NCBI RefSeq assembly: GCF_003018255.1
Contig: NZ_CP027440.1
Length of the DNA: 64,000 nt
Source: Escherichia coli
GTDB taxonomy: Bacteria; Pseudomonadota; Gammaproteobacteria; Enterobacterales; Enterobacteriaceae
Reading direction: 5' to 3' (one strand)
The position numbers and the translations under genes were made by a program. Under the pieces are notes generated by a model, which did not search any database, had not been told where the DNA came from, and was given only the letters and a program-made list of their open reading frames with translations. Below are positions 4,237-22,888 of the stretch, piece by piece. How positions within the stretch are numbered: the stretch's first letter is position 1; each line of letters starts with the position of its first letter.

Positions 4237-5187
4237 ATGCTGAGCGCATTTCAACTGGAAAATAACCGACTGACCCGGCTGGAAGTCGAAGAGTCACAAC
4301 CCCTTGTAAATGCAGTATGGATTGATCTTGTCGAACCGGACGACGACGAGCGACTGCGCGTACAATCTGAACTTGGTCAGAGCCTGGCAACCCGCCCGGA
4401 ACTGGAAGACATCGAAGCATCGGCACGTTTCTTTGAAGACGATGACGGCCTGCATATTCACTCCTTCTTCTTCTTTGAAGATGCGGAAGATCACGCCGGT
4501 AACTCTACTGTGGCATTTACCATCCGTGATGGTCGTCTGTTTACTCTGCGTGAGCGTGAACTGCCTGCATTCCGTCTGTATCGTATGCGCGCCCGTAGCC
4601 AGTCAATGGTGGACGGTAACGCCTACGAGCTGCTGTTGGATCTGTTCGAAACCAAAATCGAACAGTTGGCGGATGAAATTGAAAACATCTACAGCGATCT
4701 GGAGCAGTTGAGCCGGGTGATTATGGAAGGGCATCAGGGCGATGAGTACGACGAGGCGCTCTCCACGCTGGCGGAACTGGAAGATATCGGCTGGAAAGTT
4801 CGCCTGTGTCTGATGGATACCCAGCGTGCGCTCAACTTCCTGGTACGTAAAGCACGCTTACCGGGTGGGCAACTGGAGCAGGCGCGTGAAATCCTGCGAG
4901 ATATCGAATCCCTGCTGCCGCATAACGAATCCCTGTTCCAGAAGGTGAACTTCCTGATGCAGGCGGCGATGGGCTTTATCAATATCGAGCAGAACCGCAT
5001 CATCAAAATCTTCTCGGTGGTATCCGTGGTGTTCCTGCCACCGACGCTGGTCGCTTCCAGCTACGGGATGAACTTTGAGTTTATGCCGGAACTGAAGTGG
5101 AGCTTCGGCTACCCAGGCGCGATTATCTTTATGATCCTCGCGGGCCTGGCACCGTATCTGTACTTTAAGCGGAAGAACTGGTTGTAA
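4237..5187 (+). CDS. corA: Magnesium/cobalt transport protein CorA
   Basis: C-terminal two TM helices with YGMNF motif and KRKNWL tail; start set at the internal Met ([10 protein letters not shown]) giving 316 aa as in K-12; the ORF track start at 4222 is probably an upstream extension. Confidence 0.95.
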
Positions 5188-14662: not shown

Positions 14663-15562
14663 GTGGCGCTACTTATCATCACCACGATTCTGTGGGCCTT
14701 CTCCTTTAGCTTTTATGGCGAGTACCTTGCGGGGCACGTCGATAGCTATTTTGCAGTGCTGGTGCGCGTTGGCCTGGCGGCACTCGTGTTTCTGCCGTTT
14801 CTGCGTACCCGTGGCAATAGCCTGAAAACGGTTGGCCTGTATATGCTGGTGGGCGCGATGCAGCTCGGTGTGATGTATATGCTGAGTTTTCGCGCCTATC
14901 TCTACCTGACGGTCTCCGAACTGTTGCTGTTCACCGTACTGACTCCGCTCTACATCACGCTGATTTATGACATCATGAGTAAGCGCCGTCTGCGCTGGGG
15001 CTATGCTTTTAGCGCCTTGTTGGCGGTGATTGGTGCCGGAATTATTCGCTATGATCAGGTCACCGACCACTTCTGGACTGGCCTGCTGCTGGTGCAACTC
15101 TCCAATATCACTTTTGCCATCGGCATGGTGGGTTACAAACGCCTGATGGAAACTCGTCCGATGCCACAGCATAACGCCTTTGCGTGGTTCTATCTTGGTG
15201 CGTTCCTGGTGGCGGTGATTGCATGGTTTTTGCTGGGAAATGCGCAGAAAATGCCGCAAACCACGCTGCAATGGGGCATTCTGGTGTTTCTTGGCGTGGT
15301 GGCTTCCGGTATTGGCTACTTTATGTGGAACTACGGCGCGACTCAGGTGGACGCCGGAACGCTGGGCATTATGAATAATATGCACGTTCCGGCAGGGCTG
15401 TTGGTTAACCTGGCTATCTGGCACCAACAGCCGCACTGGCCAACGTTTATTACAGGCGCGCTGGTGATCCTGGCCTCACTGTGGGTGCATCGTAAGTGGG
15501 TCGCTCCGCGCTCTTCACAAACGGCAGATGATCGCAGGCGTGATTGCGCGCTGAACGAATAA
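14663..15562 (+). CDS. yigM: Inner membrane DMT-family transporter YigM (biotin transporter BioP)
   Basis: 299 aa polytopic membrane protein, GTG start; 3' end overlaps metR convergently. Confidence 0.85.
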
Positions 15563-16403
15563 ACGCTTCTGTAATCGGCTGACGCTGCTCGCCATCGCGC
15601 ACGGCGGCGTACAGTCGGCTCCACAAGCCTTCGCCCAGGGTTTTGGTGACCACCAGACCCTGGCGTTCAAAACTCTCCACCACCCAATGCGGTAGCGCAG
15701 CGATGCCCATCCGCGCGGCAACCATCTGAATCAACAACAAGGTGTTATCGACGCTTTTCAGTGACGGGCTAACGCCTGCGGGCTGAAGAAAATGCCGCCA
15801 GACATCCAGTCGGCTACGCTGCACCGGATAAATCAACAGCGTTTCGCTGGCGAGGTCTTCCGGCGTGATTCGCGTTTTCGCCGCCAGTGGATGGTCAGGT
15901 GCCAACACCAGACGCACTTCATAATCGAACATCGGCGAATAATGCAGGCCACTGCGCGGCAGAATATCGGAGGTCATCACCAGATCCAGCTCACCCTGCT
16001 GCAACGCGGGCTGCGGGTCAAACGTCACGCCCGATTTAAAATCCATCTCCACCTGCGGCCAGTTCTTATGGAAATTTTCTAACGCGGGCGTCAGCCACTG
16101 AATACAGCTATGGCACTCAATGGCAATGCGCAGGCGCGTCTGCTGCGGTTCATTGCAGGCTTGCAGTGCCTGGCTGATTTGAGGCAGCACCTGATTCGCC
16201 AGTTGCAACAGGATTTCTCCCTGCGGTGTAAACCGAAGCGGCTGGCTTTTACGCACAAATAGCCGGAAGCCAAGGCGTTGTTCCAGATCGCTAAACTGGT
16301 GAGACAGGGCGGATTGCGTTTGATGCAACGTCGCCGCAGCGGCTGCGAGTGAGCCGCAGTTCCGCAACGCTTGTAGCGTTTTCAGGTGTTTTACTTCGAT
16401 CAT
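15450..16403 (-). CDS. metR: LysR-family transcriptional activator MetR
   Basis: 317 aa; N-terminal LysR HTH ([20 protein letters not shown]); divergent from metE. Confidence 0.95.
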
Positions 16404-16520: not shown

Positions 16521-18782
16521 ATGACAATTCTTAATCACACCCTCGGTTTCCCTCGCGTTGGCCTGCGTCGCGAGCTGAAAAAAGCGCAAGAGAGTTATTG
16601 GGCGGGGAACTCCACGCGTGAAGAACTGCTGGCTGTTGGGCGTGAATTACGTGCCCGTCACTGGGATCAACAAAAGCAGGCGGGTATCGACCTGCTGCCG
16701 GTGGGCGATTTTGCCTGGTACGATCATGTACTGACCACCAGTCTGCTGCTGGGTAACGTTCCGCCACGTCATCAGAACAAAGATGGTTCGGTAGATATCG
16801 ACACCCTGTTCCGTATTGGTCGTGGACGTGCACCGACTGGCGAACCTGCGGCGGCAGCGGAAATGACCAAATGGTTTAACACCAACTATCACTACATGGT
16901 GCCGGAGTTCGTTAAAGGCCAACAGTTCAAACTGACCTGGACGCAGCTGCTGGAGGAAGTGGACGAGGCGCTGGCGCTGGGCCACAAGGTCAAGCCCGTG
17001 CTGCTGGGGCCGGTTACCTACCTGTGGCTGGGTAAAGTGAAAGGTGAACAGTTTGATCGCCTGAGCCTGCTGAACGACATTCTGCCGGTTTATCAGCAAG
17101 TGTTGGCAGAACTGGCAAAACGCGGCATTGAGTGGGTACAGATCGACGAACCAGCGCTGGTACTGGAACTACCGCAGGCGTGGCTGGACGCATACAAACC
17201 CGCTTACGACGCGCTCCAGGGCCAGGTGAAACTGCTGCTGACTACCTATTTTGAAGGCGTAACGCCAAATCTCGACACGATTACTGCGCTGCCTGTTCAG
17301 GGGCTGCATGTGGACCTTGTACATGGTAAAGATGACGTTGCTGAACTGCACAAGCGTCTGCCTTCTGACTGGCTACTGTCTGCGGGTCTGATCAATGGTC
17401 GTAACGTCTGGCGCGCCGATCTTACCGAGAAATATGCGCAAATTAAGGACATTGTCGGCAAACGCGATTTGTGGGTGGCATCTTCCTGCTCGTTGCTGCA
17501 CAGCCCCATCGACCTGAGCGTGGAAACGCGTCTTGATGCAGAAGTGAAAAGCTGGTTTGCCTTCGCCCTACAAAAATGCCATGAACTGGCACTGCTGCGC
17601 GATGCGCTGAACAGTGGTGATACGGCGGCTCTGGCAGAATGGAGCGCTCCGATTCAGGCGCGTCGTCACTCTACCCGTGTCCATAATCCGGCGGTAGAAA
17701 AGCGTCTTGCAGCCATTACCGCCCAGGACAGTCAGCGTGCGAATGTCTATGAAGTGCGTGCTGAAGCCCAGCGTGCGCGTTTTAAACTGCCCGCGTGGCC
17801 GACTACCACGATTGGTTCCTTCCCGCAAACCACGGAAATTCGTACACTGCGTCTGGATTTCAAAAAGGGTAATCTCGACGCCAACAACTACCGCACGGGC
17901 ATTGCGGAACATATCAAGCAGGCCATTGTCGAGCAGGAACGTTTGGGACTGGATGTGCTGGTACATGGCGAGGCCGAGCGTAATGACATGGTGGAATACT
18001 TTGGCGAGCATCTGGATGGCTTTGTCTTTACGCAAAACGGTTGGGTACAGAGCTACGGTTCCCGCTGCGTGAAGCCACCGATTGTCATTGGTGACGTTAG
18101 CCGCCCGGCACCAATTACCGTGGAGTGGGCGAAATATGCACAATCGCTGACCGACAAACCGGTGAAAGGGATGCTGACGGGGCCGGTAACCATACTCTGC
18201 TGGTCATTCCCGCGTGAAGATGTCAGCCGTGAAACCATCGCCAAACAAATTGCGCTGGCGCTGCGTGATGAAGTGGCGGACCTGGAAGCCGCTGGAATTG
18301 GCATCATCCAGATTGATGAACCGGCACTGCGCGAAGGTTTACCGCTGCGTCGCAGCGACTGGGATGCCTATCTCCAGTGGGGCGTGGAGGCTTTCCGTAT
18401 CAACGCCGCCGTGGCGAAAGATGACACACAAATCCACACTCACATGTGTTACTGCGAGTTCAACGACATCATGGATTCGATTGCGGCGCTGGACGCAGAC
18501 GTCATCACCATCGAAACCTCGCGTTCCGACATGGAGTTGCTGGAGTCGTTTGAAGAGTTTGATTATCCAAATGAAATTGGTCCAGGCGTCTATGACATTC
18601 ACTCGCCAAACGTACCGAGCGTGGAATGGATTGAAGCCCTGCTGAAGAAAGCGGCAAAACGCATTCCGGCAGAGCGTCTGTGGGTAAACCCGGACTGTGG
18701 CCTGAAAACGCGCGGCTGGCCAGAAACCCGCGCGGCACTGGCGAACATGGTGCAGGCGGCGCAGAATTTGCGTCGGGGATGA
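16521..18782 (+). CDS. metE: Cobalamin-independent methionine synthase
   Basis: 753 aa; duplicated UroD-like barrel, C-terminal zinc-binding His/Cys/Glu region (HMCYCEF...); divergent from metR. Confidence 0.97.
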
Positions 18783-18821
18783 TGAGTATTAACGAGTCAT
18801 TGTAAATTGCAGTACGATAAT

Positions 18822-18847
18822 GGCTTCCAGTACTGGAAGCCATTTTG
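18822..18847 (+). terminator. Rho-independent terminator downstream of metE (possibly bidirectional)
   Basis: Inverted repeat ggcttccag/ctggaagcc followed by attttgc. Confidence 0.6.
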
Positions 18848-18950
18848 CATGAGTGCCAGATTGAAGCAGATCTTCAGGAGTAGAAATAACCGAATCGTTT
18901 TTTTCGCAAAACACAGTTTTGAGTGATTCCGTTCAGTAATCAACGCTACG

Positions 18951-19211
18951 TTATTTATTCTCACGTTGCACGAGATTGTATCCCTTTTCACTAACGTGGT
19001 AGTGAGGCATAGACTTATGCCCGCTATCCTCAATAATAACCAAACCTTCGTTAGCTAATTTGTTAACAATATTAACAATATTACCGAATCCTGGTATTTG
19101 CCTTATGGATAGTGTGCGATCGAGATTCATCCAGTTCCAGTTTATATCTTTCTCAGTCATAACGTTCAGCACGTTAAGTTCATTTTTAGTGATCACGATA
19201 TTCTGTACCAA
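18951..19211 (-). CDS. Candidate immunity protein, paralog 2 (distal copy)
   Basis: 86 aa; clearly paralogous to the 19271..19528 ORF (shared NVL.VM.EKDI.W.WM.LDRTL.IR.IPGFGN..NIV.KL...GLV); AT-rich; downstream of the Hcp-fusion gene. Confidence 0.6.
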   Translation of the reverse strand: MVQNIVITKNELNVLNVMTEKDINWNWMNLDRTLSIRQIPGFGNIVNIVNKLANEGLVIIEDSGHKSMPHYHVSEKGYNLVQRENK

Positions 19212-19270
19212 AATTGATGAGTATCTTATTGAAAGATCACAATGTAAATCATGCTCCTGTAATGGCTGGA

Positions 19271-19528
19271 TCAGAAGAGGTTGTCTTGTTGTTCTTTGAT
19301 AAGATTCAATCCATATTGAGAAACTCTGTAGCGTGGTTTAGAGTTGCCCTCACCATTTACGATATCAACCAACCCATGATTAACCAGCTTTGTTACGATA
19401 TTCGCTACGTTGCCAAATCCTGGAATATTTCGTATAGCTAAAGTACGATCCAGCACCATCCAGCTCCAGTCAATATCTTTCTCAGCCATAACTTTCAGCA
19501 CGTTAAATTCAACTATCGTAATCGTCAT
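19271..19528 (-). CDS. Candidate immunity protein, paralog 1 (proximal copy)
   Basis: 85 aa; start codon overlaps stop of the Hcp-fusion gene by 4 bp (ATGA at 19525-19528), i.e. translationally coupled; paralog of the 18951..19211 ORF. Confidence 0.65.
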   Translation of the reverse strand: MTITIVEFNVLKVMAEKDIDWSWMVLDRTLAIRNIPGFGNVANIVTKLVNHGLVDIVNGEGNSKPRYRVSQYGLNLIKEQQDNLF

Positions 19529-20658
19529 TTTTTTGCATCCGGATGAAATAAGTCAGTATCTTTAATTTTAAAGTCTTCTAGAGTTGCAGTATGTACATTA
19601 TTCCATAATTCATATCCATCTAAACCTTTCGGTTCACCTGTTTCCCATCCTAAATTACAATAACGCTGATACTCGCGACATTCATGAGTATAGTAGTTCA
19701 GATCGTATTTTTCAGGAAGCAATTCTTTATTTGCTATTTTCTTTAGCCTTGAAATCATTACATCATTAGCTGGATCATGATCAAATCTGGAGATATGCTT
19801 TTCAACAATAGCGATACCTTCCCTGTTGATTGTTACGCCATCTATCGTCAGGTTTTCAATTGGACCACCGGCAAGGTCGGGATTAAATGGTCTTCCTGAT
19901 ACTGCTCCTCTGGCTCCGAAATGCTCAAGTGATTCCAAATCAGGGAATCTCATTCTTCCCAGAACAACTCCAGCAACTATTGAAGCACCAGCGATGAGTA
20001 ACCCTTTGTTATCCATAACTTGATCGTAACCAGCAGGTGCATCTCCTCCCAACTTGTTTGCTGTTTCCCTGAATCCTTCGATATTCCCATTGTATATGCC
20101 GCCAGCAGCAAGCAGTCTGCCAACCGCTTTACTATTGAGTGTTTTGAGGCCATTATCATCTTTAGTTTTTGGCCGTGGTATAAACAGACGGTTGTAGTTA
20201 TCGGGAAATGCCAAATAACTAAATTCAGTATTAGCAATCAGATGCCTGGAGAGTATATATTCATAACTGGCAGTGATGGTTTCTGTATCCAGATTGTTCT
20301 CAGTAAACAGGTGATTGATTGCTGATAAGAGCGCGCCGCGGAGTTGAATGTTGTAATATTTCTCCCATCGACCAAATCTATTGATCCGATAGAAGTCAAA
20401 CTCCATGAACAACTGCTCGTTATTGTTAATAGCGTTAATAAGTAACGGGGAGCTTTTGTCAATCAACTTACAGAAACTAAGGCCATGTAATTGTGACCCT
20501 TTGCCTGTATTCGTAATACTATTAGATAGCGAGAACGCGAAGATTTCATCTTCATGGCCAATCTGCCAGCGATTACCTATTGATGCGCTCGTTCCGCAAC
20601 GAGAGGAAATACATCCTTGTTGTTCTCCGGTTATGGTCAGGTAAATAATATCACTCAT
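19525..20658 (-). CDS. Hcp (T6SS tube protein) domain fused to C-terminal extension of unknown function: candidate Hcp-ET type effector
   Basis: 377 aa; first ~165 aa resemble enterobacterial Hcp from memory (YLTITGEQQGCISSRCGTSASIGNRWQIGHEDEIFAF...KLIDKSSPLLINAI...EFDFYRI); ~210 aa C-terminal extension with GxxxG-rich hydrophobic segment and His/Glu/Tyr-rich tail (YYTHECREYQRY); AT-rich. Confidence 0.75.
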   Translation of the reverse strand: MSDIIYLTITGEQQGCISSRCGTSASIGNRWQIGHEDEIFAFSLSNSITNTGKGSQLHGLSFCKLIDKSSPLLINAINNNEQLFMEFDFYRINRFGRWEKYYNIQLRGALLSAINHLFTENNLDTETITASYEYILSRHLIANTEFSYLAFPDNYNRLFIPRPKTKDDNGLKTLNSKAVGRLLAAGGIYNGNIEGFRETANKLGGDAPAGYDQVMDNKGLLIAGASIVAGVVLGRMRFPDLESLEHFGARGAVSGRPFNPDLAGGPIENLTIDGVTINREGIAIVEKHISRFDHDPANDVMISRLKKIANKELLPEKYDLNYYTHECREYQRYCNLGWETGEPKGLDGYELWNNVHTATLEDFKIKDTDLFHPDAKK

Positions 20659-21049
20659 CCTTGAAAAACCTTTTGTTAATTCTTTTGTGAAAGAAAAATA
20701 GTATTGTTATTTTTTACCTTTATTTACGCCCAAAAGGGATGAACTAAAATGTGAAAAACAAAATGTTTCACTTTAATATCTTTTTATCAGGAAGGTCTGA
20801 GATAATTTATAATTAATGTGAATGTGTTGATAATAATTAATGTTTGTTTGAGAATGGGAGTTGATGGTAAATCTCTAAGGTGTCTGCCAGTGAAGAGACT
20901 CATTTATGACTATGACTTGCCGACTTTCTTAAGGTCAAATAGCGGAGTCGTGCTCTCCAATCAATTCATACTGATTATTTTTTGGGGGACAGAGATGGCA
21001 GCAAAATGCACTCGTTCACTCACCATCTCAAATATAGACTAAGAGGAAA
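20659..21049 (-). promoter_or_regulatory. AT-rich upstream/promoter region of the Hcp-fusion operon
   Basis: About 390 bp strongly AT-rich non-coding DNA upstream of the Hcp-fusion start; no precise -35/-10 assigned. Confidence 0.4.
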
Positions 21050-21862
21050 CTAATTCCGCTTCCCACCATACTGCTTAAACCACTCCAGCATACGCTGCCA
21101 GCCATCTTTCGCAGATTCGGCATGATAGCTCGGGCGATAATCGGCGTTGAATGCATGCCCGGCATCCGGGTAGACGATAATCTCTGCTTTCGCATTAGCA
21201 GCCCGCAGCGCCTGGCGCATGGTTTCAACGCTCTCCTGCGGAATGCTGTTATCCTGACCACCATATAAGCCGAGAACCGGCGCGTTAAGATCGGTTGCGA
21301 TATCAACAGGTTGTTTCGGTGAATTCAGCGACTTGTCGCCCGTCAGTTTGCCGTACCACGCCACTGCGGCTTTTAGCTGTGGATTATGCGCGGCATACAG
21401 CCAGGTGATACGTCCACCCCAGCAGAATCCGGTGATCATTAAACGATGAACATCGCCGCCGTTGCGGGAAGCCCAACTGGCGACATGATCGAGATCGGCC
21501 AGCACCTGCGAGTCAGGCACTTTTGCTACCAGACCGCTAAGCAACGTGGGGATATCGGCAAAATCATTCGGATCGCCTTCGCGGAAGTAAAGTTCAGGTG
21601 CAATAGCCAGATACCCCTCCAGCGCCAGACGGCGACAAATGTCGCGGATATGTTCATGCACGCCAAAAATTTCCTGCACTACAATGACCACTGGCAGTGG
21701 GCCATCGCTTTGCTTTGGTCTGGCATGGTAAGCAGGCATGTTATCCCCTTGTGAAGGGATAGAGGTGAAGCCCGCCACAATCGCGTCGTCCGGAGTCTGA
21801 ACGATGGTCGAAGCGAGAGGCGATGCCGCAGGTGCAAATCCAGATTGTTGTGTTGTTGCCAT
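21050..21862 (-). CDS. ysgA: Dienelactone hydrolase family protein YsgA
   Basis: alpha/beta hydrolase with dienelactone hydrolase-like sequence (GFCWGG nucleophile region); start chosen at MATTQQSGF; ORF track start at 21928 is a longer alternative. Confidence 0.85.
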   Translation of the reverse strand: MATTQQSGFAPAASPLASTIVQTPDDAIVAGFTSIPSQGDNMPAYHARPKQSDGPLPVVIVVQEIFGVHEHIRDICRRLALEGYLAIAPELYFREGDPNDFADIPTLLSGLVAKVPDSQVLADLDHVASWASRNGGDVHRLMITGFCWGGRITWLYAAHNPQLKAAVAWYGKLTGDKSLNSPKQPVDIATDLNAPVLGLYGGQDNSIPQESVETMRQALRAANAKAEIIVYPDAGHAFNADYRPSYHAESAKDGWQRMLEWFKQYGGKRN

Positions 21863-21982
21863 GGTATTCTCCGTACCCTTATAAAAATGTTGCGCAATGT
21901 TAACTATAGTCAGCATGCAACAAATCACATTGCCTGAATCGGCTCATCTTTTATGCAGTCCTGCAGAATGAAGAGTGATTTA

Positions 21983-21998: not shown

Positions 21999-22123
21999 TT
22001 TGATGGGTAAATTTATGCAACGCATTTGCGTCATGGTGATGAGTATCACGAAAAAATGTTAAACCCTTCGGTAAAGTGTCTTTTTGCTTCTTCTGACTAA
22101 ACCGATTCACAGAGGAGTTGTAT

Positions 22124-22888
22124 ATGTCCAAGTCTGATGTTTTTCATCTCGGCCTCACTAAAAACGATTTACAAGGGGCTACGCTTGCCATCGTCCCTGG
22201 CGACCCGGATCGTGTGGAAAAGATCGCCGCGCTGATGGATAAGCCGGTTAAGCTGGCATCTCACCGCGAATTCACCACCTGGCGTGCAGAGCTGGATGGT
22301 AAACCTGTTATCGTCTGCTCTACCGGTATCGGCGGCCCGTCTACCTCTATTGCTGTTGAAGAGCTGGCACAGCTGGGCATTCGCACCTTCCTGCGTATCG
22401 GTACAACGGGCGCTATTCAGCCGCATATTAATGTGGGTGATGTCCTGGTTACCACGGCGTCTGTTCGTCTGGACGGCGCGAGCCTGCACTTCGCACCGCT
22501 GGAATTCCCGGCTGTCGCTGATTTCGAATGTACGACTGCGCTGGTTGAAGCGGCGAAGTCAATTGGTGCCACCACTCACGTTGGTGTGACGGCTTCTTCT
22601 GATACCTTCTACCCGGGTCAGGAACGTTACGATACTTACTCTGGTCGCGTAGTTCGTCACTTTAAAGGTTCTATGGAAGAGTGGCAGGCGATGGGCGTAA
22701 TGAACTATGAAATGGAATCTGCAACCCTGCTGACCATGTGTGCAAGTCAGGGCCTGCGTGCCGGTATGGTAGCGGGGGTTATCGTTAACCGCACCCAGCA
22801 AGAGATCCCGAATGCTGAGACGATGAAACAAACCGAGAGCCATGCGGTGAAAATCGTGGTGGAAGCGGCGCGTCGTCTGCTGAAATAA
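22124..22888 (+). CDS. udp: Uridine phosphorylase
   Basis: Start at [11 protein letters not shown] (253 aa); PNP/UDP phosphorylase family motifs; K-12 synteny. Confidence 0.95.

Follow-up and report, generated by a model that had tools for sequence, protein, structure and literature searches.

Hcp proteins that carry a C-terminal toxin are known in Enterobacteriaceae as the Hcp-ET effectors. According to the passages of two reviews (PMC6730261, PMC6099711) that deal with Ma et al. 2017, these effectors are followed directly by one or more ETI immunity genes, orphan loci occur, and behind Hcp-ET3-4 its own immunity gene is present three times. Passages on Hcp-ET in such reviews also ascribe recognisable HNH/colicin DNase domains to ET1. 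Here, we analyse a locus of comparable layout in Escherichia coli. It lies on contig NZ_CP027440.1 (assembly GCF_003018255.1) within a stretch of 64,000 nucleotides (nt), which is called the window below. Two small open reading frames (ORFs), the proximal ORF A and the distal ORF B, stand there behind the gene of a specialised Hcp (TssD) that ends in a toxin domain. Second immunity genes are also found in nuclease colicin operons, an additional imm gene of the E8 type being present in ColE3-CA38 and ColE6. As for the fold of immunity proteins, Imm-NMB0513/DUF596 (PDB 2O5H; Zhang et al. 2012) is a winged-helix immunity family of polymorphic toxins with two conserved tryptophans, and of its partner toxins, which are alpha+beta or mostly beta, Ntox7 has a BECR fold and Ntox20 is mostly beta (PMC3482391).

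Our reading of the window locus is that ORF A is the cognate immunity protein and blocks the toxin, that specificity lies in a swapped end of the toxin, and that ORF B, if expressed, guards against a second type of the toxin (type 2). We give this reading as a whole a probability of about 0.75. The immunity reading of the small proteins is well supported by the comparison of genomes. What was computed comprises the paralogy, the order of the genes, the swap of the cassette, the joint occurrence of toxin and immunity genes, the match of their subtypes and the fold prediction. Hcp effectors with downstream immunity, orphan immunity genes that arise by cassette displacement, second immunity genes of colicins and a winged-helix immunity protein were known already. 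New are an unnamed toxin domain with a confident predicted fold and no solved relative, and an unnamed PadR-like immunity family that is unannotated or probably misannotated.

Two toxin alleles and the origin of the small-gene pair

The original prediction, which was made from the letters of the window without database searches, described the two small genes as paralogous and substantially diverged on the basis of a shared core. Pairwise alignment agrees. ORF A and ORF B are identical at 46 of 80 residues (58%) over a gapless alignment (BLASTP, E 6e-32), a similarity far above chance, and the core quoted in the prediction is present. Their synonymous divergence is saturated (dS ~1.6) and their nonsynonymous divergence (dN) is 0.31, giving a dN/dS of 0.19, so they are old paralogues under purifying selection and no recent duplicate. 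The ATG of ORF A sits on the TGA of the toxin gene in a 4-nt ATGA overlap at 19525-19528. The mechanical ORF of ORF B (18951-19211) has a TTG start and 86 amino acids (aa), and the GTG at 19196, which gives the 81 aa of RefSeq, is the more likely start than the TTG at 19211. Since ORF B begins 59 nt (TTG) or 74 nt (GTG) after the stop of ORF A and lacks an obvious Shine-Dalgarno sequence, the proximal copy alone is placed for translational coupling, as had been claimed. Neither ORF A nor ORF B contains a signal peptide or a membrane segment when the sequences are read by eye.

The spacer between the two genes has features of its own. Within 19226-19258, a strong Shine-Dalgarno sequence, AGGAG, precedes a mini-ORF, MIYIVIFQ with its stop codon (19226-19252), and a promoter-like match at 19248-19220 overlaps this mini-ORF; the promoter scan reports a consensus match only. 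Both elements could be a relic or could contribute to the expression of ORF B.

A second toxin allele occupies the same site between metE and ysgA in E. coli O166:H15 JNE070796 and in approximately 134 other complete genomes, and the arrangement with both ORF A and ORF B (allele 1) is found in approximately 709 complete E. coli genomes. The allele-2 Hcp-toxin is 90% identical overall to that of the window and diverges in the last ~90 residues. It is followed by a single small gene (1568-1813 of the JNE070796 locus, L011), whose product shares 86% of its residues with ORF B and only 60% with ORF A. A sliding DNA comparison of the window with L011 gives 90-100% identity (mostly 97-100%) between 21049 and 19792, and then a drop to ~70% between 19791 and 19558. 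L011 lacks the block 19557-19198, which contains ORF A. Between 19197 and 18958, the identity is again 85-97%, and down to 18898 it is 83%. A sharp mosaic boundary thus lies within the toxin gene, and homology resumes at the start codon of ORF B. Comparison of the window with L011 revealed no remnant of a displaced toxin tip between the two small genes.

Because the cassette of the toxin 3' end and ORF A differs between the alleles and ORF B is retained, the array arose from cassette replacement and not from local duplication. The wording "tandem duplicated" of the original prediction therefore holds for the tandem paralogues and fails for duplication in place. Where an allele-2 strain has an intact toxin, no candidate for self-protection other than the B-type gene is present, and, judged by this gene content, that gene must be the cognate immunity gene of the type-2 toxin. 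For ORF B in the window, the most fitting interpretation is that of an orphan immunity gene. Its close relationship to the only small gene of a second allele at the same site also favours the earlier suggestion of protection against more than one toxin variant.

Small genes of this kind persist where the toxin is damaged or absent. In CFT073 and SCU-123, the toxin is a pseudogene, and both small genes are intact and identical at the protein level. ORF B is annotated alike, as WP_001298603.1, in the three allele-1 loci that were inspected (JNE23-011, CFT073 and SCU-123). Its DNA match is essentially uniform at 94% in all but two of 37 allele-1 records, a sample from the ~709 that includes S88 and Nissle 1917. 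In Citrobacter and Kosakonia, a member of the small family comes last in line behind unrelated toxin/immunity pairs. Tandem small-gene pairs without a toxin are present in Cronobacter malonaticus and Pseudescherichia. In Cronobacter, a C-type cognate, defined below, is followed by an A-type orphan that is intact or truncated; the orphan of Cronobacter sakazakii L027 is truncated to 59 aa. A parallel from another family is seen on the K. variicola plasmid NZ_CP065166.1, where an E2-type DNase immunity gene (L030 584-841; E 5e-29 to Im2) follows the presumed cognate. By this match, it is an orphan immunity gene against a different bacteriocin class.

Two of these groups show further rearrangements. 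In the CFT073-type strains (L010, NC_004431.1 4518115-4523187; L012), the Hcp-toxin has an internal stop or a frameshift, and hxlB and a ptsG-like phosphotransferase system gene replace the ysgA side. Citrobacter sp. FP75 (L013 4144-5397) encodes a related Hcp effector with the same linker, a different toxin and an in-frame stop at 4389/4390. This split effector is followed by two unrelated small genes, and an A-type member stands third.

The toxin domain and its partner on other carriers

The N-terminal part of the 377-aa protein is an Hcp. T6SS_HCP of Pfam matches residues 6-135 (E 1.5e-13), TIGR03344 reaches 124.5 bits, its cut-off being 58.9, and the PDB Hcp 6a2v matches the same domain (E 2.4e-14). 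The C-terminal extension beyond it comprises 230 aa. Residues 150-377 gave zero Pfam matches even at E <= 10, and the extension has no sequence match in Pfam, NCBIfam or PDB. Direct searches with the toxin, ORF A and ORF B in Pfam, NCBIfam, PADLOC, PHROGs and PDB sequences returned nothing significant. The linker behind the Hcp domain is common to Hcp and non-Hcp proteins that end in colicin D (PF11429) or DUF6883 (PF21814), and it looks like a shared pre-toxin module. In the proteins P0219-P0240, it joins Hcp, or an unrelated N-domain of ~110 aa (MLQHYQAKSL...), to swappable toxins, namely the present toxin domain, colicin D, DUF6883 and others.

The toxin domain was modelled by AlphaFold as all-alpha with a predicted local distance difference test score (pLDDT) of 93, and no convincing structural neighbour of the model was found in the PDB. 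Its profile recovers 763 proteins, many of them stand-alone proteins of 130-165 aa. Homologues occur in Pseudomonas, Burkholderiales, Acidobacteriota, Anaerolineae, Planctomycetes and cyanobacteria. In an alignment of 73 sequences, G24, H48, R51, F52, L65, H85, E86, R92, W112, L120 and E121 (numbering of the domain) are invariant.

A toxin followed immediately by a co-oriented partner is the arrangement in L002, L005, L011, L017, L019, L022, L025, L027 and L028. Proteins of 348 aa in Lonsdalea and Pantoea have an unrelated N-terminus and are 69-72% identical to the window protein over ~240 C-terminal residues and 77-81% identical over the 137-aa toxin domain. A homologue of ORF A overlaps these genes by 4 nt, and orthologues of ORF A stand after type-1 toxin domains in Lonsdalea, Pantoea and Enterobacter. 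One further toxin homologue has an unrelated Ala/Gly-rich N-terminal region that resembles pre-toxin-TG by eye only. Microcoleus has a stand-alone toxin domain, and the protein encoded behind it belongs to the small family with its N-terminal half (the first 85 residues, GKWSWYELANALS). In a second distant genome, a stand-alone toxin behind a CdiA_C/SitI3 module is followed by a 91-aa member of the small family. P0283 combines a toxin C-terminal end with a distant member of the small family. The cyanobacterial members P0322, P0311 and P0315 vary in their C-terminal additions, which are a HicB-like domain, another tail or none.

The toxin domain is also used by bacteriocins. In Klebsiella and E. 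coli, small ColE-type plasmids encode bacteriocins that end in this domain at ~48% identity, and the bacteriocin gene is followed by a small gene and a lysis gene. In the E. coli plasmid bacteriocin, the central region matches colicin D (E 3e-63). The gene in the immunity slot of these plasmids reaches 16.6 bits against the small family in hmmsearch and 79% (E 1.6e-5) in hhalign, and its product is probably a distant relative of the small family.

Three toxin subtypes can be distinguished, and each has its own subtype of small protein. Type-1 toxins, which end in ...DLFHPDAxK, pair with A-type proteins, and type-2 toxins (E. coli O166:H15, SCPM-O-B-8794) pair with B-type proteins only. Type-3 toxins of Cronobacter sakazakii and Salmonella bongori, which end in ...DLYHPDAPxW, pair with C-type proteins, which are ~40% identical to A and B. 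The identities of toxins and partners co-vary across 10 modules (r = 0.93), the pairs not being independent of each other. That the partner tracks the toxin domain and not its carrier is well supported by these comparisons, since the carriers are Hcp, a non-Hcp N-domain, no carrier at all in the stand-alone toxins and, probably, the colicin D-like bacteriocins. The immunity-like character proposed in the original prediction is thereby strengthened: the family comes right behind one and the same toxin domain even where the carriers are unrelated and the phyla distant, stays intact beside the CFT073 pseudogene and occurs as orphans elsewhere.

Since the partner has neither a signal peptide nor a membrane segment, since the invariant residues include His, Glu and Arg, and since the domain recurs as the warhead of a bacteriocin with a colicin D-like central region and in pairs that resemble toxin-antitoxin modules, the toxin probably acts in the cytoplasm of the target cell, and probably on nucleic acid. 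From the computed results, we infer physical binding, neutralisation, the compartment and activity of the toxin, and the expression of ORF B. The locus would then be an orphan effector-immunity module of the T6SS (type VI secretion system), in which the Hcp-fused protein delivers the all-alpha toxin domain. ORF A would be made in step with the toxin via the ATGA overlap and, as a small cytoplasmic winged-helix protein, would bind and block the toxin domain in the cytoplasm of the producer. The specificity determinants on the toxin side are expected in the swapped C-terminal ~90 residues. ORF B would have been left behind when a cassette of toxin 3' end and ORF A replaced the 3' end of a type-2 toxin and, if expressed, it would protect the cell from neighbours that fire the type-2 toxin.

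Reading the pair as cognate and orphan immunity proteins would correct a probable misannotation. It would also define a toxin/immunity family pair that plasmid bacteriocins use as well. The three toxin subtypes and three immunity subtypes offer a compact natural system for the evolution of immunity specificity and for the way in which strains collect protection against rivals.

Fold of the small proteins and the competing explanations

The earlier suggestion of a helix-turn-helix with a wing is in line with structure prediction. The AlphaFold2 model of ORF A, which was built on a 76-sequence alignment, has a pLDDT of 87.9 and the order helix-strand-helix-helix-beta-hairpin-helix, which is that of a winged helix. 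The top PDB matches in Foldseek are RosR, PadR-family proteins, Rv0880 and MarR, with template modelling (TM) scores of ~0.7-0.77 (~0.75 for RosR, PadR and MarR) and 12-23% identity. Likewise, the profile of the small family matches PadR-like proteins of the PDB at E 1e-4 to 1e-3 (TM0937, E 1.4e-4). Among 1.84 billion, the family counts 90 representatives (E <= 1e-3), of which almost all have ~80 aa and the motif W-x-W-[YM]-x-L-D-R. Its median isoelectric point is 6.3, that is, near-neutral to acidic. Conservation is centred on helix 2, and helix 3, the would-be recognition helix, is poor in Lys and Arg. P0286, a protein of 851 aa with ~15 near-identical 57-aa repeats, reaches E 1.6e-6 against the family profile and looks like a repeat-driven false positive.

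Membership in the MarR family was considered and is judged improbable, although the winged-helix core is shared. Full-length MarR proteins have ~140-150 aa with N- and C-terminal dimerisation helices. The small proteins are 81-90 aa long versus 134-146 residues for the matched MarR-family chains, and the alignment spans the winged-helix core only. With E. coli MarR (3vod), the TM score is 0.73 when normalised to the query and ~0.47 when normalised to the target. No match to Pfam MarR (PF01047/PF12802) is listed for the 76 members, and HTH_27 matches one of them. The NCBI label "MarR family regulator" for relatives is probably wrong.

Several observations weigh against our reading and bring in the alternatives. 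DNA-binding regulators have the fold that is predicted for the small proteins, and two arginines of the wing that are common in the family, Arg66 and Arg68, leave room for DNA binding. Pfam PadR (PF03551) matches 7 of the 76 members at E <= 1e-3 and 27 at E <= 0.1; ORF A and ORF B themselves have no match to it. These results fit a distant relationship to PadR better than membership. The co-variation of toxin and partner is in part plain co-inheritance. In the Microcoleus partner (L023 3411-3893), the small-family domain is fused to a HicB-like antitoxin domain, which leaves open that another domain neutralises the toxin there while the winged helix binds DNA. If the small proteins were plain transcription regulators that do not interact with the toxin, they would lie next to it because they regulate a gene of the island. 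Many relatives are indeed named "MarR family transcriptional regulator" by NCBI, and the Foldseek and profile matches are all transcription factors. However, the short chains align with the winged-helix core only, and the family has just weak matches to PadR and other winged-helix families. A plain regulator would also leave unexplained the carrier-independent pairing, the subtype matching, the tandem and orphan copies, and the retention beside a dead toxin. We consider it very unlikely. The alternative of a small DNA-binding regulator, which the original prediction had left standing, thus has the winged-helix fold in its favour and is disfavoured as the sole function by pairing, subtypes and orphans. 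A dual function would extend our reading: besides neutralising the toxin, the small proteins would attach to DNA as PadR-like dimers, autoregulating the operon in the manner of type II antitoxins. The C-terminal helix of the winged helix is like that of small PadR proteins, and the stand-alone toxin and partner pairs resemble toxin-antitoxin modules, in Microcoleus among other toxin-antitoxin genes and with the HicB-like fusion. Against this stand the low positive charge of the putative recognition helix in a family that is not basic, the conservation in helix 2 (W-x-W-x-x-L-D-R) and not in helix 3, and the position of the small genes downstream of the toxin in the window. A search for an operator-like palindrome in the DNA upstream of the Hcp gene, moreover, gave imperfect AT-rich repeats only and nothing convincing. 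A dual role appears rather improbable.

The remaining doubt concerns ORF B, which might be a non-functional relic beside a functional ORF A, either untranslated or recognising no circulating toxin. Its start codon is GTG in the window versus ATG in L011, its toxin-coupled start context is lost, it has no clear Shine-Dalgarno sequence, and its dN/dS against the allele-2 counterpart is 0.47, which points to relaxed constraint. With these features, ORF B may be weakly expressed or decaying, and the truncated orphan of Cronobacter sakazakii shows that such orphans decay. On the other hand, the frame is intact, the protein is the same in JNE23-011, CFT073 and SCU-123, and its DNA match is nearly uniform across the sampled allele-1 records. 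Purifying selection has acted on A and B since their divergence, and a promoter-like match, by consensus only, lies just upstream. The circulation of allele-2 toxins in E. coli also provides a selective reason for retention. We regard a relic as possible and somewhat doubtful, and continue to favour an ORF B that protects against the type-2 toxin if it is expressed. A broader proposal is offered tentatively, and it may well not hold. The toxin domain, with its confident model, no PDB neighbour and the invariant residues His48, Arg51, His85, Glu86, Arg92 and Glu121, could be a new enzymatic fold. As a warhead not recognised before, it would be common to Hcp effectors of the T6SS, to bacteriocins of the colicin D-like kind and, in several phyla, to stand-alone pairs that resemble toxin-antitoxin modules. 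The inhibitor of this toxin could be a minimal PadR-like winged helix that has turned from DNA to toxin binding or does both, linking immunity to autoregulation.

Setting of the locus and comparison with known systems

The features of the locus are listed in Table 1. The three genes for Hcp-toxin, ORF A and ORF B are co-oriented on the minus strand within an island between metE and ysgA, and the composition profile gives the island a GC content of 34-44% compared with 51-57% in the flanks. With presence defined as at least 80% of the island length covered, the island was found in 841 of 5,426 complete E. coli genomes, and it was chromosomal every time. Carriers include CFT073, S88 and Nissle 1917. 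The current labels of the three genes are "tssD" and "hypothetical" only, and relatives are labelled "MarR family regulator". In many E. coli strains, insertion sequences (IS1 or IS3) lie in or beside the island (hits H4-H20). A toxin fragment of Shigella sonnei (P0195), which is labelled "IS1 orfB", is present on 365 contigs. The insertions and this fragment suggest that the toxin gene has been inactivated repeatedly.

Table 1. Positions of the genes, domains and other features of the locus in the window (aa, amino acids)
Feature	Position	Strand	Description and basis
metR	15450-16403	minus	E. coli chromosome, flank
metE	16521-18782	plus	flank of island
Low-GC island between metE and ysgA	18800-21050	no strand	composition profile, flanking genes
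ORF B, distal small protein	18951-19196	minus	81 aa from GTG 19196, RefSeq start; predicted orphan immunity gene of type-2 allele
Spacer between ORF A and ORF B	19197-19270	minus	AGGAG, 8-codon mini-ORF, promoter-like match
Swapped cassette	19198-19791	minus	last ~90 toxin codons, ORF A and spacer; sliding comparison with L011
ORF A, proximal small protein	19271-19528	minus	85 aa, ATG start, ORF list; predicted cognate immunity protein of type-1 toxin, winged helix
Hcp (TssD) with C-terminal toxin	19525-20658	minus	specialised, 377 aa, intact; Pfam, TIGR03344, RefSeq tssD orthologue
Toxin domain	19528-19938	minus	residues 241-377, 137 aa, all-alpha; alignment and model
Linker/pre-toxin region	19939-20166	minus	residues ~165-240, with Gly/Ala-rich hydrophobic stretch GLLIAGASIVAGVVLG; recurs with other toxin domains
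Hcp tube-protein domain	20209-20658	minus	residues 1 to ~150, T6SS delivery module; Pfam, TIGR03344, PDB
ysgA	21050-21928	minus	flank of island
udp	22118-22888	plus	flank

A literature search by RefSeq accession found no paper naming these proteins, and this toxin warhead was not identified in the klebicin literature. The small proteins share their fold (TM ~0.7-0.77) and a weak profile similarity with the PadR/MarR transcription factors. They differ from them in being ~40% shorter than MarR chains and not basic, in having helix 2 as the conserved surface, and in a context that is always a toxin locus. As regards type II antitoxins, some relatives form stand-alone toxin and partner pairs; the toxin of the window, however, is fused to a secretion domain. 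With Imm-NMB0513/DUF596, the small family has in common that it consists of small, predicted winged-helix proteins with a putative role in immunity and two conserved tryptophans. Membership in DUF596 was rejected, as none of 76 family members matches the Pfam family and the all-alpha toxin of the window is unlike Ntox7 and Ntox20.

The Hcp-ET effectors are similar in that the window locus is also an Hcp with a C-terminal extension outside a T6SS cluster, with a predicted immunity gene immediately downstream. The two small genes of the window are, however, predicted cognates of two toxin alleles and not copies of one immunity gene. Identity with Hcp-ET1-ET5 was rejected, because the C-terminal domain of the window has no Pfam match and is all-alpha, not a beta-beta-alpha-metal HNH domain; the toxin clans were compared by the descriptions given in the review passages. 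T6EC4, an Hcp effector of Citrobacter koseri (PMC11148199), was set aside since its Tox-REase-5-like domain is a different one.

As in orphan immunity loci of contact-dependent inhibition (CDI), Rhs and T6SS systems, a toxin-tip/immunity cassette was replaced by recombination in a conserved part of the toxin, the old immunity gene was kept downstream, and immunity genes outlast the loss of the toxin. The carrier in the window is Hcp and not CdiA or Rhs, and a displaced toxin-tip remnant is absent between the immunity genes. The order of toxin, cognate immunity gene and second, non-cognate immunity gene is also that of nuclease colicin operons, and the toxin domain itself occurs on bacteriocin plasmids of such layout, although the relationship of the proteins in their immunity slot to ORF A and ORF B is only distant. 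In contrast to these operons, the window locus carries neither a lysis gene nor receptor or translocation domains, which points to delivery of the same kind of warhead by the T6SS.

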